Below are positions 161 to 22,131 of a DNA stretch of 64,000 nucleotides, piece after piece (the stretch's first letter is position 1; each line of letters begins with the position of its first letter). The notes under the pieces are model-generated. The model was not told where the DNA came from. It searched no databases and saw only the letters and a program-made list of their open reading frames with translations. Made by a program: the position numbers and the translations under genes. The stretch is from assembly GCA_964618625.1 (NCBI GenBank), contig CAZUBI010000001.1:254930-318929 (forward strand), in the 5' to 3' direction. Source of the stretch: an uncultured Candidatus Saccharibacteria bacterium. Its GTDB lineage: Bacteria > Patescibacteriota > Minisyncoccia > UBA6257.

Positions 161-1324
161 TTAATGCACCAAAAATGTTTGGCAAAGGGCTCCGATAACA
201 AGAGCTGTTATAAAAACTACAATTAAAACTTTATTTAAAGGAACTTGATAAGGCGGCTCTATTTCCCTTTGTTGTTTTGCTTTTTTTAAAACTAAAATAA
301 GCATTATCCCCTCAAGACCGCCTAACATTCCTCCAATAAAAGAAATGAGTTTTACTAAATTTTCTAAATGGAGGCAGTAAAGCAGTAATGGGCCAACAAC
401 TACCAAAAAATAACTTATAAAACGAGACCATTTAAAATCATAAATAAAACTATTCTTAATATAAGAAGCAAAAATTAAATAAGAGGTTGAAACCGCTAAA
501 AAACCAAGTATTGATCCTAATAAAACAATATTATTTCCTAAAATACCTTTTAACCCTTGAATAGCTTCTATTGAAGTTAAGGACCCACTCGCTCCTGATA
601 CTGTTAAAATAAAAATCAAATAACAAAAAGCAGGAATAAGCGTGCCGATAATAATAACCTTTTTTAATTTTTCCTTATTTTCTCCTTTTATTTTTAAAAC
701 TTTTGCCGCCTCAGGAATAGCCACCATTCCATTAAGAGCAAAAAAGACAACACCATAAGGAATTAACCAACCCCATTTATTAGTAAAATCAAAAAAATTT
801 AGATTTTCCGTTTTAAAATGAGGTAAAGCAAAAATGGCAATGATGAAAAATAAAAAAAGTAGGGCAAAAGATAAATAAAAATTAATTTTGGATAATCTTT
901 TACTTTTGCTTAAAATCGCCGAGCTTAACAAGAGCCAAAGAAAAACAACTAAAAATCCCTGCGGAAAAGAAAAATTAATCCAAATAGAACTTAAAATTAC
1001 CCGTAAAAATTGGGAGCCTAAAAGCAGATAAATAAGAAGGGAAAATGAAAAAGTAAAAAAAGTTATTAAAAGAATAAATCTTTTGGCTGAAGAATTTAAA
1101 TAATGCCCGACATATCCGGGCAAACGAAAATCTTGTTTTGTTCTTAAAACTATCTCCCCAAAGGCAAGATGAAGATAAGTAATAATAAAGCTAACAATAA
1201 TTAACCAGATTAATGTTGTGGCTAATCCAGAATGAACAGCCACATAAGGAAGCGTAAAAACACCAGCTCCAATAATTGTTCCAATTAAAACAGCAATAGC
1301 TTCAGGCACGACTAATTTTTTCAT
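161..1324 (-). CDS. integral membrane amino-acid permease-like transporter
   Basis: 387 aa, ~11 predicted TM helices; N-terminal IGAGVFTLPY motif as in Trp/Tyr-permease / amino-acid permease families. Confidence 0.5.
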   Translation of the reverse strand: MKKLVVPEAIAVLIGTIIGAGVFTLPYVAVHSGLATTLIWLIIVSFIITYLHLAFGEIVLRTKQDFRLPGYVGHYLNSSAKRFILLITFFTFSFSLLIYLLLGSQFLRVILSSIWINFSFPQGFLVVFLWLLLSSAILSKSKRLSKINFYLSFALLFLFFIIAIFALPHFKTENLNFFDFTNKWGWLIPYGVVFFALNGMVAIPEAAKVLKIKGENKEKLKKVIIIGTLIPAFCYLIFILTVSGASGSLTSIEAIQGLKGILGNNIVLLGSILGFLAVSTSYLIFASYIKNSFIYDFKWSRFISYFLVVVGPLLLYCLHLENLVKLISFIGGMLGGLEGIMLILVLKKAKQQREIEPPYQVPLNKVLIVVFITALVIGALCQTFLVH

Positions 1325-1325
1325 A

Positions 1326-1577
1326 CTAAACTACTAAATAAACCTCATCGCCTTCCCTCACTTTTTCATCAACTTTTACTCCAATTGCATCTCCTTTTTT
1401 CGCTTTTTCCACATTCTCATGCTCAATCTGAATTGAAGAAATATCTTGTTCAAAATCAGTGCCATGCCCTTTAATATGAACTCTATCTCCTACTTTGAGT
1501 GCGCGAGAAAGTTCAACAATGGCAACACTAATTTTTCCAAAATAATGAGTGATTTTTCCGATAAGTTTTTCCTCCAT
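1326..1577 (-). CDS. small beta-barrel protein (EF-Tu domain-2-like), hypothetical
   Basis: 83 aa, Gly/Val-rich beta pattern (GDRVHIKG...GDAIGVKV...GDEVYLVV). Confidence 0.3.
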   Translation of the reverse strand: MEEKLIGKITHYFGKISVAIVELSRALKVGDRVHIKGHGTDFEQDISSIQIEHENVEKAKKGDAIGVKVDEKVREGDEVYLVV

Positions 1578-1605
1578 AATAATTAAATAATTAATTTTTC
1601 GACCT

Positions 1606-4557
1606 TTATCCTTTTATGACTGCCAAAGGTTTTAATTGGACTATTTTTTTAGCTAACCCGGCTTGATGAACTACTTCTACTACTTCATCAACATCTTTAT
1701 AGGCCAAAGGGGCTTCTTCAGCCAAATCAGAAAGAGATCCTGACTTAACTATTATACCTTTTTTAGCAAGTTGTTGTAAAACTTCTCTACTGCTTGTTTC
1801 TCTTTTTGCTTCATGACGGGACATTGTCCTTCCAGCACCATGACAAACAGTATAAAAAGCTTCTTTTGATTTTTCAGTACCCATTAAAATATAGGAGGCT
1901 GTTCCCATTGTGCCGGGAATTAACACTGGCTGATCGGGAAAAGCCCTTGTTGCCCCTTTACGATGAACGATTAATTTTATCATCTCTCCATCTACTTCAT
2001 GCTCCTCTATTTTTGCAATATTATGAGCCACATCATAAACCAAGTCCATTGATTCTTCTTTTAGTCCTAGAACTTTTTTCCAAGCATTTCTGATCAAATA
2101 AGTAATCATTTGGCGATTGGACCAGGCAAAGTTTGCTGCTGCTCCCATTGCCAAAAAATATTCTTTTCCCTCAGGAGTAGAAAAAGGAATTGCCGCTAAT
2201 TCTCTGTCGGGGAGAGAAATATTATATTTATTCATTGATTGCATAAAAAGACGGATATAATCTGTTGCCACTTGATGACCTAAACCGCGAGAACCAGTGT
2301 GAATAAGAACTACTACTTGTCCTTTTCTAAGACCCAATTCCTCAGCTAATTTTTCTTCATATACCTCGGTTACTTCCTGAACTTCCACGAAATGATTTCC
2401 GGATCCGAGAGTCCCTACTTGATCCCGTCCTCTTTTTTTGGCTAAATCAGATACAAAACAAGGATCTGCTTTTAAACATCCCCCTGACTCACAATGTTCG
2501 ATATCCTTTTCTGTAGCGTATTCTTTTTCTTTTAAATACTCGATCCCTTTTCCTAAAATTCTGTCCATTTCAGCAATATTAAATTTAAACTTTCCCCCTT
2601 TCCCAAGACCAGAAGGAACAGCATGAAAGATTTCTTCTATTAATTTTTCCAGATAGGGCCTGATTTCTTTTTCAGTATGTTTTGATTTTAATAATCTAAC
2701 TCCACAGTTAGAAACTACAAAATTGTCAGCAATAAAGTTATGGTCAGGGTGATTTACAGTAAAATCATAAACAAAATTTTGATAAGGAATTTTTTCAATC
2801 TTTTCAATTATACCCCAAACTAATCCTTTATCGCCATAAGCATATTTTTCTTTATATTCGTTAAATGATAGAAAATTAAAAGCTACTCGGGGAATTCCTC
2901 GTTTTCTTATAATTCCGTGACTATTTTCTTTAAAGAGAGAATGATAGAGAAATTGAAAACTAATATATTCTGAGACATATTTCTTAATTATTTGAGGAGC
3001 CAATTTTTTAAAATCCCCTCTCTTTCGGTACAACTTTCTTATCTCTCGTCTTGCCCTATCTCTCATTTCTACTATTTTTAATTTTTTCTTTAAATAATTA
3101 GCAGCCAAACAGGCTTTTTTATGTTTGCTTTGATTATATTCATAATTTATAACGCTAAAAAATTTAATGAGGTTTTTACTCTCACCCTTTATTTGTAACC
3201 TTAATCCTACGGTCTTTCCATATTTTCCTTTATATTGATACCCTGGTACTTCTTTAATAGAATAAGTCTGAACGCCAAATTCCTTTAATAGTTTCCCTAT
3301 ATCTTTTAAAAATAATTTGGCATTATTTTTAAATTTTTCAGCTTTTTGCATATTTAACTGAAGAGCGCAAAAGTTATATTTATTAAGAGTTGATGGTGAA
3401 GAAAGCTCCGCTCCAAAAAACGAAGCTAAGAATAATCTTTTTTGCCAAAGAGGACAATTGAATATCCAATTAGGAATTCTATATTTTTGATGGGTTTTCA
3501 AACTATAAGGTGTTCCTAAGGCCACTAATAAAATAGCAAAGGCAGAAGAGCCTATTTTAATACTGTACTCTGTTCTTGAAAATTTATAATTTCTATAAAA
3601 AGTAGTTATGGAGTGGTTTCTTTGCCTTGAATATATTTTTGGTGGCTTAAATCCAATTTTAAAAATATCTTTTTGAATTTCTTTCAAATCTTCCGGGTTA
3701 CCATAGAATTGAACCACTCCTTTTTTATTATTTACAAAACTGATTACCCCATCGCCAAAAATATAACCCATTAGTTTTAAGATAGAAGGAAGAGAAGAAG
3801 AATTATAAGTTAAAGGTAATAAATGACGAGATCTTATTTGATTTAGAATTTGAGATGAAGCATTTCCTTTGTTAGTTTTATTAAATTTCTTTAAATATTC
3901 TTTAAATCGCTTCTCGGCTAAAATAATTTTAGAAGAAGGATGCTGATAGTGAATTCCTTTAAATGGATAAGTTAAAACAAAATCATCTTTATTTAAAAAT
4001 CTTGTTTCTTTCATTCCGTTTTCTGTTTGTATGGGATGTTCTCCAGTAGCTTTAATTTTCTCTCCAGAATCTGTAATTATCCGATAAATAGTAGGGTTAT
4101 TATATCTTTGAAAAAAATGTATTAATGGAGAATCAATAACTGCTTTTTTTCTCAAATCTATAGTCTTTACTTCTTCACTTCCCCAAGACGACTCCATTTC
4201 TTTAATAGAGAGGTAGGCTCCATTTTTAAGTAAAATTTTACTCTCTGGAGAGAGGCAATTGATATCATATCCCACTGAACCAGGAGAAATTATGCCATCA
4301 GGTAGTTTTGTGGCAAAAACTCCGCCAATTGGTGCGCCATAGCCTTCATGAATATCTGGCATAGCTAAAGAATATTTTACAATTCCAGGAAGAGTAGTTA
4401 GATTAACTAATTGACTCAAACTTTTGTCTTTCATTACCTCATCTAACATTTTTTCAGTAATATAAATCCTCGCTGGAACCAGCATATCCCTCCTAAAAGA
4501 TTTTGGGATTTCCCAAAGATAATTATTTAATTTTATTAAATCAGATTTATTAAACAT
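1606..4557 (-). CDS. rtcB: RNA-splicing ligase RtcB, interrupted by an intein
   Basis: N-extein MFNKSD...GYDIN and C-extein CGVRLLKS...GSGNHFVE...HGAGR together give ~466 aa of RtcB; a 517-aa insert sits between them. Confidence 0.9.
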   Translation of the reverse strand: MFNKSDLIKLNNYLWEIPKSFRRDMLVPARIYITEKMLDEVMKDKSLSQLVNLTTLPGIVKYSLAMPDIHEGYGAPIGGVFATKLPDGIISPGSVGYDINCLSPESKILLKNGAYLSIKEMESSWGSEEVKTIDLRKKAVIDSPLIHFFQRYNNPTIYRIITDSGEKIKATGEHPIQTENGMKETRFLNKDDFVLTYPFKGIHYQHPSSKIILAEKRFKEYLKKFNKTNKGNASSQILNQIRSRHLLPLTYNSSSLPSILKLMGYIFGDGVISFVNNKKGVVQFYGNPEDLKEIQKDIFKIGFKPPKIYSRQRNHSITTFYRNYKFSRTEYSIKIGSSAFAILLVALGTPYSLKTHQKYRIPNWIFNCPLWQKRLFLASFFGAELSSPSTLNKYNFCALQLNMQKAEKFKNNAKLFLKDIGKLLKEFGVQTYSIKEVPGYQYKGKYGKTVGLRLQIKGESKNLIKFFSVINYEYNQSKHKKACLAANYLKKKLKIVEMRDRARREIRKLYRKRGDFKKLAPQIIKKYVSEYISFQFLYHSLFKENSHGIIRKRGIPRVAFNFLSFNEYKEKYAYGDKGLVWGIIEKIEKIPYQNFVYDFTVNHPDHNFIADNFVVSNCGVRLLKSKHTEKEIRPYLEKLIEEIFHAVPSGLGKGGKFKFNIAEMDRILGKGIEYLKEKEYATEKDIEHCESGGCLKADPCFVSDLAKKRGRDQVGTLGSGNHFVEVQEVTEVYEEKLAEELGLRKGQVVVLIHTGSRGLGHQVATDYIRLFMQSMNKYNISLPDRELAAIPFSTPEGKEYFLAMGAAANFAWSNRQMITYLIRNAWKKVLGLKEESMDLVYDVAHNIAKIEEHEVDGEMIKLIVHRKGATRAFPDQPVLIPGTMGTASYILMGTEKSKEAFYTVCHGAGRTMSRHEAKRETSSREVLQQLAKKGIIVKSGSLSDLAEEAPLAYKDVDEVVEVVHQAGLAKKIVQLKPLAVIKG
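2707..4257 (-). mobile_element. intein with LAGLIDADG homing-endonuclease domain inside rtcB
   Basis: Starts with Cys (CLSPESKILLKNG, block A) and has a TGEHP block B. Two LAGLIDADG-like motifs (LMGYIFGDGVISF, LASFFGAELS). C-terminal blocks VYDFTVNHPDHNFIADNFVVSN are followed by Cys+1 (TGT at 2704..2706, read directly from sequence). Confidence 0.8.
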
Positions 4558-4562
4558 AAAAT

Positions 4563-4976
4563 TTAGATGTCAAAAAGAATTATTGCCTTCCAATCACCAT
4601 TTTTGTCTTGATTGATATTTAATTGATGATAAGTTGCGGCTTTTATTTCTTTAGAAAATTCTTTCACATTTCTGCCTTCTATTATTCCTTTTATAGAATT
4701 ATCTGTTAATTTTTCTATTTTTACCTTGTCAAAAATGCAATTATAAATATCTGATTTTGCTAAAACTTCATTTAAAAAATCCACCAAGAGCGCGTTGATA
4801 TCCAAAGAATGAATTTCTATTTGTTCTTTCTTCAAAACACTCTTTTGAAAAACATTTGGCTCAATAATATAAGTCATTCCTTCCAAAGCCCCTCTAAAAA
4901 TATCTTCTTTGCAAGAGGCTGTTATTTCTAATCTAATATCTGCTGGATGAGATAAAACCTTGTATTTATAACTCAT
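4563..4976 (-). CDS. archease (RtcB activator)
   Basis: 137 aa; HPADIRLEITASCKEDIFRGALEGM N-terminal motif; lies immediately downstream of rtcB. Confidence 0.7.
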   Translation of the reverse strand: MSYKYKVLSHPADIRLEITASCKEDIFRGALEGMTYIIEPNVFQKSVLKKEQIEIHSLDINALLVDFLNEVLAKSDIYNCIFDKVKIEKLTDNSIKGIIEGRNVKEFSKEIKAATYHQLNINQDKNGDWKAIILFDI

Positions 4977-5018
4977 TATAATAATATTTTACTAGAAAGT
5001 ATTGAACAAAACAATCTA

Positions 5019-5051
5019 TCAAAAAACGGCTAAGATATTATCTTGACCGTC
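5019..5051 (-). terminator. hairpin + U-run terminator downstream of rpsT
   Basis: acggctaagat/atcttgaccgt stem followed by a T-run on the minus strand. Confidence 0.45.
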
Positions 5052-5075
5052 TATTTATAATTCATTAAATAAGAA

Positions 5076-5336
5076 TTATTTCTTTACCACCTTTTTTGCT
5101 AATCTAGATTTATCTCTCGCTGCTTTATTTTTCTTTATCAAATTCACTTTTGCGGCTTTATCTAAAAGTTTATATGCTTTTGGGAGCATTTTTTTAGCTT
5201 CTTCGATTTTGCCATTCTCAATAAGTTTTAAAAAATCTTTCTTTGTTTTTTTTAAAACAATCTTTTTCTGTAAATTAGCTTTTCTTTTTTTAGAGCTCTC
5301 TTTAAGAGCTCTTTTTGCTGAACTTGTAATAGGCAT
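5076..5336 (-). CDS. rpsT: 30S ribosomal protein S20
   Basis: 86 aa basic protein; SAKRALKESSKKRKANLQKK typical S20. Confidence 0.9.
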   Translation of the reverse strand: MPITSSAKRALKESSKKRKANLQKKIVLKKTKKDFLKLIENGKIEEAKKMLPKAYKLLDKAAKVNLIKKNKAARDKSRLAKKVVKK

Positions 5337-5365
5337 AAAAGAATAAATCTTTATTGTGATTTAAT

Positions 5366-6313
5366 TTAACATCTTTGCTTGGAAAAATCAACCAAAAACA
5401 TCTCTAAAGCAACTTGCCCATCAATATTTCCTCTCTTTATTTTTCTGTCATAATAAAGAAGGCGTTGAAATATGGACTTAAGCGTTTCCAAGGGAATAAT
5501 TTTTGCCAAAGGATGTAATTTTTGAAAAACATAAGGGTGCATTGAAGGCGGTTTTGCTTGTAGACTTTTTATTATCAAAAGATTGCGAAATTGAAAAATA
5601 ATCATTTTTAAAATATATAAAGGATGTATTCCCTGATTCATTAATGTCTCTAAAAACCAAAAGGCTTTTTTCATATTACCTTCAACCAAATTATCCAAAA
5701 AAGAAAAAATATTACTGTTTAAAGGTAAAAATAAATTTTCTTCTATTAACTCTTTGCTGATCAAGCCCTTTTTTATCAAAGCTAATTTTTCTAAAGAGTA
5801 GTAAATTGAACCTGTGTCAGAAGGAAAACTTACTAATATTAACTGGCGACCTTCAGAAGTTAATTTTAAACCCATTTTTTGCTCTTCTTCTATTATCCAA
5901 CTCTCTAATCCTTTTTTCTTTAATAATGAAAATTCTTTTACTCCTTTAGCTTTTTGTTCCAACCATTTCCGTAAGGAACTACTACGAACAGTATTATCCT
6001 CATAAAATATAACCATTATATCTTTAGCTTCGTCTATTTTTCTGTTCTTTAAAACAGCTAACAATTCTTTTCGAAATTCAATATTGGTATTTTTAAACAA
6101 ATTCTTTATTGCCACTAATTTACTGCCAGAAAATAAAGTATTGCTTTTTAATATGTCCTCTAATGCGGAAATATCAAATGAAGCAGAAAGTTTGTCTGAA
6201 AAATCACACGAAAAAAACGGGGTGTTTTTATTTTTATCATAATAAAAATCCCTTACTTCAAAAAAATATTTATGCGAACGAAAATTATCTTCCCCAAAAA
6301 TAAAATACAACAT
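5366..6313 (-). CDS. holA: DNA polymerase III delta subunit
   Basis: 315 aa; N-terminal LYFIFGEDNF and C-terminal YDRKIKRG...ALEMFL pattern; located next to rpsT. Confidence 0.6.
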   Translation of the reverse strand: MLYFIFGEDNFRSHKYFFEVRDFYYDKNKNTPFFSCDFSDKLSASFDISALEDILKSNTLFSGSKLVAIKNLFKNTNIEFRKELLAVLKNRKIDEAKDIMVIFYEDNTVRSSSLRKWLEQKAKGVKEFSLLKKKGLESWIIEEEQKMGLKLTSEGRQLILVSFPSDTGSIYYSLEKLALIKKGLISKELIEENLFLPLNSNIFSFLDNLVEGNMKKAFWFLETLMNQGIHPLYILKMIIFQFRNLLIIKSLQAKPPSMHPYVFQKLHPLAKIIPLETLKSIFQRLLYYDRKIKRGNIDGQVALEMFLVDFSKQRC

Positions 6314-10828: not shown

Positions 10829-13723
10829 ATGAAAGACTTCGCCAAAAAAAGGGAGGAAAAAATTAAAGCTCTTTGGCAAGAATCAAAAGAAAGAGAAGCG
10901 CAAAGGCTGGCTGAAAAACACAATTTTCTTTATGTTGACTTAAGAAAAGCGCCAATTGAAACAAGCGCTCTTTCTATAATCCCAGAAGAAGAAGCAAGAA
11001 AAACTAATATTATTGCTTTCCAAAAAATAGGAAATCAAATTAAATTAGCTGTTTTAGACCCATTTAACGCTGAAACAATAAGAACAATTGAAAAAATCAA
11101 AAAAGAAAGATATAAAGTTGCCGTTTTTGTTGTTACTGAGGAAAGCCTTAATTGGGCATGGAAAAATTATGCTTTTGTCCATGAGCACCAAAAAGAATTA
11201 TCAAATTTTATAGAAATAACTGACACTAAGTCAATTGAATTTTCCGATCTTCATCAAGAACTTTTACCCCTTCCCATAGAAGAAGTCACTTCATTAGTCT
11301 CGCTTATTTTAAAATCAGCTGTTGAAATAGACGCCTCTGACATTCATATTGAACCGCAGGAAGATTACGCTCTTGTTCGTTTTCGTGTGGACGGTGTCTT
11401 ATATGATGTTTCTGAAATAGAAAAAAAGAAACACCGCGGCATTAATCAAAGATTAAAGCTTCTGTCTGGTTTAAAATTAAATATTGAAAATATTTCCCAA
11501 AATGGCAGATTTACTATCCAAAATAATAAAAGTTTTATTGATGTCCGCGCTTCCAGCTTACCAGGTCCTCATGGAGAATTTTTAGTATTCAGGCTCTTAA
11601 ACCCCAAACGAGCCGCTTTTGGTTTAAAAGATTTAGGTATTGACCAAAAAAGTATAGATGTTTTTAATCATTCTTTATCAGCACCAAATGGAATGATTTT
11701 AATCACAGGACCTACAGGTTCAGGAAAAACAACTACTTTATACGCTTTTTTAAAAAAGAAGATTTCCCCAGGAATAAAAATTATCACAATTGAAGACCCA
11801 ATTGAATATCGGCTTGTTGGTGTAAACCAAACTCAGACATCAAAAAAATATGGTTTTGCTAATGGATTAAAATCCATTCTCCGACAAGATCCTGATGTCC
11901 TTATGATTGGCGAAATGAGAGATGAGGAAACAGTAAAAACCGCTATACAGGCTTCTTTAACCGGACATTTGGTCTTTTCTACACTCCATACAAATGAAGC
12001 CAGCGGCACTATTGCCAGACTGGTTGAATTAGGCGCTGACGTCCAAATGCTTCCAAATGCGCTTAAATTAGTTGTGGCGCAAAGATTAATTCGACGCCTT
12101 TGTCCTGATTGTAAAGAAAAATACCAACCAACTCCTGAAATGAAAGAAAGATTAATTGAGGCTTTTAGCATTCTCTCTCCAAAAAGTGGAGTAAAAATAC
12201 CGAAAAATATTCCATGTCTTTATAAATCAAAAGGCTGCGCAAAATGCCATTGGCTGGGATATAAAAGCCAGATTGGAATTTTTGAATACTTTAATATAAG
12301 TCCAAAAATTATTAAAACAATCAAATCCGACGCTGACCAAAATGAAATAAGATCGAAAGCCATTGATGAAGGAATGGTGCCTCTTTTTCATGACGGTCTA
12401 TTGAAAACTATTGAAGGCATTACTTCTTTGGAAGAAGTTATGAGAGTGGCAGGTGATATTTCCTATATCCAGGAATTATATAAAGAATTATTTTCTCAGG
12501 TTTTGACTCGAGGCGTAAAAGTAAGCAGCAAAGAAGAAAAGAAAATAGAAGAATTGCTTCAAAAGAATAAATCAATTTCCCCATTACTAAAAGATAAATC
12601 TTCTGAAAGGCAAATTGCCATTATTTTAGCTACTGCATTAAAATCACGAGCCACAGATGTTCACTTTGAACCAGAAGAAAAAACCAGTGAAATTAGGGAA
12701 AGAATTGACGGAGTGCTCCATAAATTAGTTTCTTTTGATATCAACGAGCATCCTAAATTAATTAATGAATTAAAAGCCCTCAGCGGTTTAAAAACAGAGG
12801 AAACGCAAACAATTCAAGAAGGAAGATTCCGGCTTATTCTTCCTGATGAATCTTTTGACCTCAGGCTTTCAATAATTCCAGGCGGATATGGGGAAAGCGC
12901 CTCCTTAAGAATCTTGGGCGGAGAAGAATCTTTATTAAATTTAGAAAGCTTGGGATTTTTAAAAGAACAGGAAGAAGAAATAGAAAAAGTATTAGAAAAA
13001 AAAGTCGGATTAATTTTAGCTGCCGGGCCTACTTCTTCGGGAAAAACCACAACTCTATTTACAATACTTAAAAAACTTGCCAAGCCAGATGTAAAAGTGA
13101 TTACTGTTGAAGACCCTATTGAATATCGTTTACCTGGAATTATGCAAACTCAAGTTAATGAGGAAAAAGGATATACTTTTTCCAAAGTCCTTCGAAGTTT
13201 GCTTCGCCAAAACCCTAACATTTTCCTAATTGGAGAAATTAGGGACAAAGAAACAGCTAAATTAGTCTGGCAGGCGTCTACAACAGGGCATTTAGTTCTG
13301 TCCACTATTCATACAAATGACGCTTTAGGCGTTTTATCTCGTCTACAGAGTTTAGAAATACCTTCAAAAGAATTGGTGCCTGCTATTAACACTATTGTTG
13401 CGCAACGATTAGTCCGTTGCCTTTGCCCTCATTGTAAAAAAGAAATAAAAATTCCATCAGAAATGTCCAAATTTATCAAACCATCCTTAAAATATTTCCC
13501 AAAATACAAAAAACCGATAAAAATTTACCAAGCTCAAAGTTGCGCCAAATGTAGTTTTACTGGATATAAAGGCCAATCAGGAATATTTGAAATACTTATA
13601 CCGCCTTCAAAAACAAAAGATCTTACAAAAGTAAAATTTTCAAAATTAATTAACAGCGCTGTTATTAAAGTTTTACAGGGAATTACCTCATGGGAGGAAA
13701 TAAAAAGAGTGCTTGGAGTATAA
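10829..13723 (+). CDS. type II/IV secretion (GspE/PilB-family) ATPase with two tandem ATPase cores
   Basis: 964 aa; T2SSE_N-like N-terminus. Two full cores, each with Walker A (GPTGSGKTTTLYAFL / GPTSSGKTTTLFTIL), Asp box, His box (FSTLHTNEA / LSTIHTNDA) and tetracysteine motif (CPDC..CAKC / CPHC..CAKC). Confidence 0.85.
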   Translation: MKDFAKKREEKIKALWQESKEREAQRLAEKHNFLYVDLRKAPIETSALSIIPEEEARKTNIIAFQKIGNQIKLAVLDPFNAETIRTIEKIKKERYKVAVFVVTEESLNWAWKNYAFVHEHQKELSNFIEITDTKSIEFSDLHQELLPLPIEEVTSLVSLILKSAVEIDASDIHIEPQEDYALVRFRVDGVLYDVSEIEKKKHRGINQRLKLLSGLKLNIENISQNGRFTIQNNKSFIDVRASSLPGPHGEFLVFRLLNPKRAAFGLKDLGIDQKSIDVFNHSLSAPNGMILITGPTGSGKTTTLYAFLKKKISPGIKIITIEDPIEYRLVGVNQTQTSKKYGFANGLKSILRQDPDVLMIGEMRDEETVKTAIQASLTGHLVFSTLHTNEASGTIARLVELGADVQMLPNALKLVVAQRLIRRLCPDCKEKYQPTPEMKERLIEAFSILSPKSGVKIPKNIPCLYKSKGCAKCHWLGYKSQIGIFEYFNISPKIIKTIKSDADQNEIRSKAIDEGMVPLFHDGLLKTIEGITSLEEVMRVAGDISYIQELYKELFSQVLTRGVKVSSKEEKKIEELLQKNKSISPLLKDKSSERQIAIILATALKSRATDVHFEPEEKTSEIRERIDGVLHKLVSFDINEHPKLINELKALSGLKTEETQTIQEGRFRLILPDESFDLRLSIIPGGYGESASLRILGGEESLLNLESLGFLKEQEEEIEKVLEKKVGLILAAGPTSSGKTTTLFTILKKLAKPDVKVITVEDPIEYRLPGIMQTQVNEEKGYTFSKVLRSLLRQNPNIFLIGEIRDKETAKLVWQASTTGHLVLSTIHTNDALGVLSRLQSLEIPSKELVPAINTIVAQRLVRCLCPHCKKEIKIPSEMSKFIKPSLKYFPKYKKPIKIYQAQSCAKCSFTGYKGQSGIFEILIPPSKTKDLTKVKFSKLINSAVIKVLQGITSWEEIKRVLGV

Positions 13724-20118: not shown

Positions 20119-22131
20119 TTACATAGCATTCAACAACAGTGACGATGTCTTAAAGTCACCTAAGTCAAACGTATAGAAGTTAGTGTTTGTACCAGTGCTA
20201 ATTGTACCCCAATTAATTGATTCCAAAGCTACATAGTGAGATCCAGTAGTACTAGCAGTTAGGACAACTTGAAGAGTAAATTGTCTTGTATCATTCTCTT
20301 CAACTTGGAACACTACACCAGAACTATCATCACTATCACTTGATGAAGACTCAAGAAGTTGAGAAGCAACTGTAGAAGTACCTGCAGATGACGTAATGTC
20401 AAAAACAACACCCTGTCCAGCAGCGTCAGAACCATTATCATCTTCAGTAGTATCTTCAATATACATATCATCACCAAATGCTAATACATTAAAGACAATA
20501 GTGTAAGTTCCCTGATCGTTTTCACTCGCTGCGTCAGCAGAAAAACTCTTTATCCTTTCGACACTAACCAAACTCACTGAAATACCATCATCATAGACAA
20601 CGTGCGCTTCACCAACAGCAGTACCAGACATATCTCCAGTACCCAAATCTTCACCGGTTTCATCTTCTGCGTCAATGGCAGCGCGTTCAGTACTAGAAAT
20701 TTGAGCAAGAAAAGTATCTCCTGCGTCAAGAACGTCTGCTATTGAATTAAAGTCTGCCTTAACAAGGCATGTGTATGTCTCGCCTGCCTCAAGAACAAGG
20801 TCAAGATTATCAAATATAACTGTCTCTGTACTGCTAGTTACGCCTACTGTTGTATTTTCTGATCCTACTTTTTCTCCATCCACATAGAGATAAAGCGCAG
20901 AAACGAGATCATCTGGACCATTTCCAGTGCTTTCAACTGAAACAACATTCACAGGAATATCATCAATAGTAATGTCTGAGCTACCTTCTACCTCCATTGT
21001 GAATGAAAGAATTGATACGTTATCTGTATCATCTGTTGCATGAACATCAATTACATGCGCTTCATTAATACTTTCATCATCAAGAGCAATCTTAAGCTCT
21101 ATATTAGCTGATGTAGCATATGTATCAAACGAAAAAGTTGTAGCACCAACTCCTGGATCCTCGGAAATAGTTGCTCCTTGAGCATCTAGATACCGAATAG
21201 ATGAATAGTCAACAGTCCAAGTATCACCAGCATCAGCAGAATCAAGATTGTTAATGCCAGAAATCTTTACATAAAGAATACCTGTAGCTTCTGCAAGAAT
21301 AATGTTATTACCACTAAGTGTAACTGTCCTGATCCAGGTGTTGTCATCATCAAAAGTATCGGCATCTACGCGAGCAACTTCATTACTACCAAGCCATACT
21401 GAGACTTCGTCTGCAAATTTGTCAAACTCTCTACCAGCTGTAGCTGTGCCTTGAGCAAAAGTAAGCTGGATAGCTGTGATTCTAAGATCTGAGCCCTCAT
21501 CAGCTTCTATTTCAAGACCAGCAACTACAACATCATTCTCAGCTTCACCGACTTCCTCATTAGAAAGTCCGCTGGAAAGTTCATAGGCTACAACTGATCC
21601 TGCTCCACCCGTAAGAGCTGCTACAGTAGTTGTAGTAGTTGTATCTACGGGAGCAACTGTAGTAGTTGTTGTAGGAACTACTGGAGTACAATACAAAGCA
21701 TTGAATTTAGCTCTGGTTGTAGAACCAGCATAACCAGTCCCTTTAGTGAATCCCCAAGAAGCTAAAACCTCAGAAGCATATTTCTCCTGAAACTTAATTA
21801 CTGCGGCTTTGGTCAATGCACCGAAATAAGAAGTTTCATATCCAGAAGCACCAGCCCCAGAAATAGCCACTTGAGTGGCTGAATCTTGGTTTAATCCTTG
21901 CTGGAGTATCTTTACTTCAGCGCTTGTCATTCCTGAGGAAAGATCGCCAGTAAGACAAAGCCCTGTAGTAGTAGTTGTCTGCCCAGATATTTGTGCTTGT
22001 AGCGAAGTAATCTGAGCTAACAAAGCTGTAATCTGAACTTGAAGATCTGCAATTGTATCTGCGCCTGCTGAGCCAACCATAGAAACGGCAAAAGCTACAG
22101 CAATAACAGAAGCAATAATTTTATTTTTCAT
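20119..22131 (-). CDS. large secreted Thr-rich surface protein with N-terminal coiled-coil + PG_binding_1 module
   Basis: 670 aa; signal peptide; LQAQ coiled-coil; YFGALTKAAVIKFQ; poly-Thr linkers (TTTTTVAPVDTTTTTTV); acidic beta-rich C-terminal region. Confidence 0.6.
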   Translation of the reverse strand: MKNKIIASVIAVAFAVSMVGSAGADTIADLQVQITALLAQITSLQAQISGQTTTTTGLCLTGDLSSGMTSAEVKILQQGLNQDSATQVAISGAGASGYETSYFGALTKAAVIKFQEKYASEVLASWGFTKGTGYAGSTTRAKFNALYCTPVVPTTTTTVAPVDTTTTTTVAALTGGAGSVVAYELSSGLSNEEVGEAENDVVVAGLEIEADEGSDLRITAIQLTFAQGTATAGREFDKFADEVSVWLGSNEVARVDADTFDDDNTWIRTVTLSGNNIILAEATGILYVKISGINNLDSADAGDTWTVDYSSIRYLDAQGATISEDPGVGATTFSFDTYATSANIELKIALDDESINEAHVIDVHATDDTDNVSILSFTMEVEGSSDITIDDIPVNVVSVESTGNGPDDLVSALYLYVDGEKVGSENTTVGVTSSTETVIFDNLDLVLEAGETYTCLVKADFNSIADVLDAGDTFLAQISSTERAAIDAEDETGEDLGTGDMSGTAVGEAHVVYDDGISVSLVSVERIKSFSADAASENDQGTYTIVFNVLAFGDDMYIEDTTEDDNGSDAAGQGVVFDITSSAGTSTVASQLLESSSSDSDDSSGVVFQVEENDTRQFTLQVVLTASTTGSHYVALESINWGTISTGTNTNFYTFDLGDFKTSSLLLNAM

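Follow-up and report, generated by a model that had tools for sequence, protein, structure and literature searches.

The window analysed here is a stretch of 64,000 nucleotides from an uncultured Candidatus Saccharibacteria bacterium (GenBank assembly GCA_964618625.1, contig CAZUBI010000001.1), and positions are counted from its first letter. Close to that end lies the gene for RtcB, a 3'-phosphate/5'-OH RNA ligase, which encodes a single long product in which the two halves of the enzyme, the N-extein and the C-extein, flank an intein, with the gene for archease, the RtcB activator, beside it. An earlier note on this DNA had described an RtcB into which a large LAGLIDADG intein is inserted at the conserved Cys, a reading that is now supported by the junction, by the protein families matched and by the predicted fold; its residue counts and junction sequences (517 amino acids between an N-extein ending in GYDIN and a C-extein starting with CGVRLL) proved exact. 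The features of the locus are these:

1606-4557, minus strand: rtcB precursor open reading frame (ORF), 983 amino acids without internal stops, comprising N-extein, intein and C-extein
4258-4557, minus strand: N-extein, 100 amino acids, with GYDIN at its C terminus; carries the equivalent of the metal ligand Asp95
2707-4257, minus strand: intein, 517 amino acids, starting CLSPESK and ending FVVSN (Cys1 to Ser516-Asn517)
3919-4257, minus strand: N-terminal lobe of the splicing (Hint) domain, intein residues ~1-113, with block A (Cys1) and block B
4036-4047, minus strand: block B, T71-G-E-H74, in the N-terminal Hint lobe
2848-3918, minus strand: homing-endonuclease insert with an extra helical region, intein residues ~114-470
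3745-3780, minus strand: LAGLIDADG motif 1, LKLMGYIFGDGV (GYIFGDG), with Asp169
3403-3435, minus strand: LAGLIDADG motif 2, LFLASFFGAEL, with Glu284
2707-2847, minus strand: C-terminal lobe of the splicing domain, intein residues 471-517
2707-2772, minus strand: blocks F and G, VYDFTVNHPDHNFIADNFVVSN, with Asp498 and His506 (F) and Ser516-Asn517 before Cys+1 (G)
2704-2706, minus strand: codon of the +1 Cys, the first of the C-extein, equivalent to Cys98 of Pyrococcus horikoshii RtcB
1606-2706, minus strand: C-extein, 366 amino acids plus stop codon, starting CGVRLL and carrying the GSGNHF, HTGSRGLGH, AHN and CHGAGR motifs
4563-4976, minus strand: archease, 137 amino acids (PF01951 Archease, 90.7 bits, E = 1.3e-25), 5' of rtcB

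The precursor matches the Pfam family RtcB (PF01139) with 521 bits, in two stretches, and the flanking halves rebuild one contiguous RtcB: when joined, the exteins (466 amino acids) align to P. horikoshii RtcB (PDB 1uc2) with E = 4e-156 and without a gap at the junction. In this alignment the +1 Cys falls on Cys98 of the P. horikoshii enzyme; it becomes Cys101 in the spliced numbering, where the metal-ligand Asp is Asp98. The catalytic residues of RtcB are all present (Asp95, Cys98, Asn202/His203, His234, His329 and His404 in P. horikoshii numbering), and the motifs that hold them, GYDINCG, GSGNHF, HTGSRGLGH, AHN and CHGAGR, are all aligned. Because Cys98 bridges Mn1 and Mn2 in the P. horikoshii enzyme and the C98A substitution kills every ligation step (PMC9745838), there is good reason to expect that ligase activity here would require splicing, as the earlier note had argued. 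At 28.8%, the GC content of the intein lies 7.5 points under the 36.3% of the exteins. In NCBI, Logan and ENA assemblies, 6 contigs, the longest of them 533 kb, encode an identical 983-amino-acid protein. An assembly chimera or a pseudogene was considered as well, and was rejected given the intact ORF, the recurrence of the identical protein on these contigs and the conservation of all catalytic residues.

The inserted 517 residues carry the signature of an intein throughout. They match Pfam Intein_splicing with 59-62 bits (cut-off 35.8) and the intein N-terminal region TIGR01445 with 43-45 bits, and the NCBIfam family NF038162, 'intein-containing RtcB family protein', is matched by the precursor over model positions 2-961 of 961 (1106.4 bits), which we take as full-length homology with the same insertion site and not as membership by the NCBI naming threshold; the intein alone covers model positions 95-578 (430 bits). 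A search of 5.8 billion proteins returned 95 homologues of the intein, nearly all of them within RtcB, and the conservation counts that follow come from an alignment of 40 of these, 27-65% identical. Blocks A, B, F and G, which the earlier note had recognised, can all be aligned: the block A Cys1 is Cys in the 29 of 29 aligned homologues that have the column, position 71 of block B is Thr in 33 and Ser in 7, and His74 of block B, Asp498 and His506 of block F and Asn517 of block G are each found in 40/40, the +1 residue being Cys in 37/37. The fold modelling proposed in the earlier note gave an AlphaFold model of the intein, built on the same alignment, that is confident (predicted local distance difference test, pLDDT, 94.7; predicted template modelling score, pTM, 0.92), contains the Hint fold and resembles intein splicing domains, with the TliVMA, PI-TkoII, PI-PfuI and PI-SceI inteins at the top of the Foldseek ranking. 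By its residues and predicted fold the element is a canonical class-1 intein of the Hint-domain type, which would be expected to splice.

Between the two lobes of the splicing domain lies the predicted homing endonuclease. The two suspected LAGLIDADG-like motifs were found, both helices ending in an acidic residue, and these two residues, Asp169 and Glu284, are invariant (40/40 each), as are Gly168 and other G and F residues around them. The model shows the pseudo-dimeric alpha-beta-beta-alpha-beta-beta-alpha fold and resembles double-motif LAGLIDADG endonucleases, with block means over this domain mostly at pLDDT 88-99. Compared with PI-PfuI, PI-PkoII (PI-TkoII), TliVMA and PI-SceI, sequence identity is just 10-18% and the host proteins are different ones. 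Once freed from the precursor, the intein is probably an active endonuclease that would cut intein-less rtcB at the site coding for GYDIN/CGVR (here and below, the slash marks the junction).

The search for intein-less relatives suggested in the earlier note was successful. A syntenic contig of 22 kb (L001), at 91-92% nucleotide identity to the window, lacks exactly the 1551 bp of the intein and otherwise keeps the gene order of the window, namely TsaE, PolA, a kinase, holA, S20, archease, rtcB, a small EF-Tu-domain-2-like gene and a permease. Its rtcB is a natural intein-less allele of 466 amino acids, 95% identical to the exteins, and its empty site reads GGCTCGGTGGGTTACGACATCAAC/TGCGGAGTTAGATTA (also given as GGCTCGGTGGGTTACGACATCAAC/TGCGGAGTTAGATTATTAAAATC), the window's own spliced junction being GGTTCAGTGGGATATGATATCAAT/TGTGGAGTT. 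The nearest extein relatives among the matches listed are 61-95% identical over 99-100% of the query and, at 464-500 amino acids, of intein-less length; this also holds for the more distant of them, at 61-79% identity.

A third state of the gene was found in the contigs L005 (6001-8637), L006 and L007, which share 84-91% nucleotide identity with the window over three aligned blocks, the highest within rtcB. The protein encoded there (P0219) has exteins 92.7% identical to those of the window and is empty at the Cys98-equivalent site, and it carries a LAGLIDADG intein of 412 amino acids at FYTV/CHGAGR, beside the equivalent of the guanylylated His404, a site that is empty in the window allele. 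The similarity between the two inteins is not significant (blastp E = 0.05). Three allelic states of rtcB thus occur among close relatives: an intein at the Cys98 site, an intein at the His404 site, and none.

Comparison of the window with the intein-less L001 allele revealed seven synonymous differences, mostly C/G to T/A, within 27 nt over the insertion site (spliced nt 277-303; window positions ~4258-4281 and 2704-2706). Taking L005 as outgroup places five of these changes on the branch to the window. This cluster may be a short co-conversion tract. Considered with the three allelic states, the intein-less length of the nearest extein relatives listed, the host of the nearest intein (below) and the low GC content of the intein, it favours a gain by homing in the window lineage over a precise loss in the sister lineage.

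The nearest intein is 64% identical, and the RtcB exteins that host it are just 58% identical to those of the window. When contigs were scanned with the intein sequence alone as query, L004 ('Patescibacteria group bacterium', 64%) was the single locus returned, and a query made from the alignment would probably reach further. In the locus with the closest intein (L003, 5893-8871, GCA_964470765.1) rtcB is called as two genes of 674 and 246 amino acids; its C-extein is broken there, whether through a frameshift, pseudogene formation or faulty assembly. The same cluster has an intact member of 992 amino acids (P0227), and rtcB of L003 follows a Mur-ligase gene, not archease.

Related inteins were also seen at other places. 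Four proteins (P0006, P0007, P0042 and P0044) have a related intein at a third RtcB site, ...VVSN/CIGGVA in the conserved G-x-P-IGGV motif, and P0006 apparently has two inteins, one at this third site and one at GFDIN/C. Three ribosomal S12 proteins (PF00164; P0081, P0085 and P0086) carry an intein that is 26-29% identical to the RtcB intein, and in the two that were aligned, P0081 and P0085, it shares the LAGLIDADG motifs and ends in TSN/C. The occurrence of such sequences in two host proteins suggests transfer of this intein clade from one host gene to another.

The arrangement has long been known from the RtcB of P. horikoshii (PH1602), in which an intein occupies the same host protein at the same GYDIN/CGVR site and the Mn-bridging Cys98 is the splice junction (PMC4150793). 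Unlike that hyperthermophilic archaeon, the host here appears to be a small-genome bacterium of the Patescibacteria type, as judged from locus L004 and from the Nealsonbacteria and Patescibacteria names among the homologues. The survey of Novikova et al. 2016 had already counted RtcB inteins for 27 bacterial and 10 archaeal genomes, and candidate-phyla-radiation bacteria/Patescibacteria are not among the bacterial phyla in its RtcB table (PMC4760082). A literature search that combined intein with Patescibacteria, judged by titles, abstract openings and term counts, turned up no paper on host-protein inteins. The RtcB intein of Anaeramoeba sits at FGST/CHGE (PMC10710043), apparently the CHG site of P0219, an equivalence drawn from the unaligned CHG motif. 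The intein of the window is a real but ordinary example at the classic insertion site.

Taken together, we hold with high confidence that the element is a class-1 intein with a double-motif LAGLIDADG endonuclease at the classic P. horikoshii RtcB site, which would splice and would probably home. The archease and rtcB genes would be transcribed together, and the 983-amino-acid precursor could not form the binuclear Mn site, with Asp98 and Cys101 held 517 residues apart. Splicing would begin with an N-S acyl shift at Cys1, aided by Thr71 and His74, and continue with the attack of the +1 Cys, giving a branched thioester; Asn517 would then cyclise with the aid of Asp498 and His506 of block F instead of a penultimate His, and a final S-N shift would yield the active RtcB of 466 amino acids, with the same Cys becoming a metal ligand. 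These steps are standard intein chemistry. The freed intein would cut intein-less rtcB alleles and spread by homing, which would explain why only some close relatives have it.

Several observations weigh against this interpretation. The NF038162 score of the precursor lies 4% under the NCBI curated cut-off (1106 vs 1150), and searching every PDB chain with the intein sequence gave no match at E <= 0.01. Pfam LAGLIDADG_3 (PF14528) is matched weakly on the central region (13.7 bits, E = 0.075, cut-off 22.5); since this is sub-threshold, the endonuclease assignment is carried by motif conservation and fold, and several homologues have a precomputed PF14528 match. With respect to mobility, a second and larger cluster of differences, at spliced nt 992-1053, includes amino-acid changes, so the cluster at the insertion site is not unique and the statistical case for a tract is weakened; the choice between gain and precise loss draws on just three genomes.

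The first alternative is that splicing has been kept while the homing endonuclease is inactive or decaying, the intein persisting because its imprecise deletion at an essential codon would kill RtcB. This phase of the homing cycle is common among inteins, and the sub-threshold LAGLIDADG_3 match would fit it, as would the fact that the nearest known inteins are just 64% identical, with no very recent transfer documented among them. Even so, Asp169, Glu284 and the nearby G and F residues have stayed invariant across homologues that have diverged widely, the endonuclease domain is confidently modelled, and presence and absence of the intein are polymorphic at ~91-92% genome identity, with a possible co-conversion tract at the site. 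We regard a decayed endonuclease as unlikely on balance.

A second alternative makes the intein a conditional switch, in which redox state or metal (for instance through a disulfide between Cys1 and Cys+1) would gate splicing and hence RtcB activation and RNA repair. Conditional splicing has been reported for other inteins, and both splice-junction positions are Cys here; the insertion lies at a redox-sensitive, metal-binding Cys, which has been seen oxidised to sulfonic acid in P. horikoshii RtcB (PMC9745838), and in close relatives another intein interrupts a second catalytic site, just before the Cys next to His404. However, selfish homing elements are generally expected to insert at catalytic sites, the sequence has no sensor-specific sign, and the intein would appear dispensable because intein-less alleles work in near-identical genomic contexts, so that a switch seems very improbable to us. 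Its broader form, in which RtcB inteins at both catalytic sites would be kept as redox- or metal-gated switches of RNA repair and the conserved penultimate Ser would tune Asn cyclisation, we consider a speculative idea with a very slim chance of being right.

The penultimate residue itself is Ser, as the earlier note had pointed out; the observation stands, but not as a peculiarity of this copy, since 60 of the 68 homologues with a readable junction end in SN/C (the other 8 in HN/C) and the solved structure of another intein provides a precedent. Of the 40 aligned sequences, 33 have Ser and 7 have His at position 516, and the distant inteins of ribosomal protein S12 (27-29% identity) likewise end in TSN/C. 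The intein thus has Ser516 at the place of the penultimate His (G:6), which is a common but non-obligatory assisting residue, and splicing in its absence was reportedly documented by Chen et al. in 2000. The precedent is the Npu DnaE split intein, whose C terminus ...HNFALKNGFIASN (GFIASN) likewise places Ser before the final Asn and precedes a +1 Cys (PDB 4lx3_B), the counterpart here being ...HNFIADNFVVSN/C; unlike the intein of the window, it is a split mini-intein that has no endonuclease and resides in the DNA polymerase III alpha subunit. Across the homologues compared, Ser is the conserved state of this RtcB intein clade, and we infer that the cyclisation of Asn517 is aided by two block F residues, Asp498 and His506. 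The penultimate His is listed among the assisting splicing residues in a paper whose reference list includes splicing without it (PMC4031507), and a dead allele, in which its loss would block Asn cyclisation and leave the precursor unspliced and RtcB non-functional, is scarcely credible when most homologous RtcB inteins and Npu DnaE share the Ser, all other catalytic residues are conserved, and the ORF and every RtcB catalytic motif are intact.

With regard to the genomic setting, archease had been placed directly downstream of rtcB; it does adjoin the gene, but with both genes read from the minus strand its place is directly upstream. The two are separated by a 5-nt spacer (TAA-ATTTT-ATG), and from this spacing alone we infer that they are co-transcribed. 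The pairing recurs at the syntenic loci L001, L002 and L005-L007, and an archease-rtcB operon is a known arrangement, the two genes adjoining each other in P. horikoshii too (PMC3973293). A scan for promoters and terminators over 1200-5500 gave counts near the shuffled expectation and no convincing operon promoter. Around rtcB lie ordinary bacterial housekeeping genes, which encode a histidine kinase, ribosomal protein S20, the delta subunit of DNA polymerase III, and DNA polymerase I. When the window was scanned for transfer RNAs and Rfam families, five ordinary tRNAs came up, and no hit suggested a substrate for RtcB.

Other features of the window were noted in passing. An ORF of 83 amino acids with weak similarity to EF-Tu domain 2 (1326-1577, minus strand) starts 28 nt downstream of rtcB, and its position is kept in L001, L002 and L005-L007. 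Further away, a type II/IV secretion ATPase of 964 amino acids (10829-13723, plus strand) matches T2SSE with 687 bits in two stretches; a second P-loop signal near residues 720-770 makes it look like a tandem or fused PilB/PilT-like pair. An ORF of 670 amino acids (20119-22131, minus strand) has no Pfam match at E <= 1e-5.

For new biology the finding carries little weight, and its value lies in the correct annotation of a known type of element in an under-studied group of bacteria. For annotators, the 983-amino-acid product is to be read as a precursor whose working enzyme would be the spliced RtcB of 466 amino acids. A clade of large, endonuclease-bearing inteins with a conserved penultimate Ser may be of interest to intein engineers, and the likely target sequence of the endonuclease is now given. 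What stands out, if mildly, is only the polymorphism of rtcB, which has three states across two catalytic sites among close relatives, and the trio of near-identical loci, with an intein at one site, an intein at the other, or none, could offer a clean system in which to follow homing and turnover in candidate-phyla-radiation bacteria.

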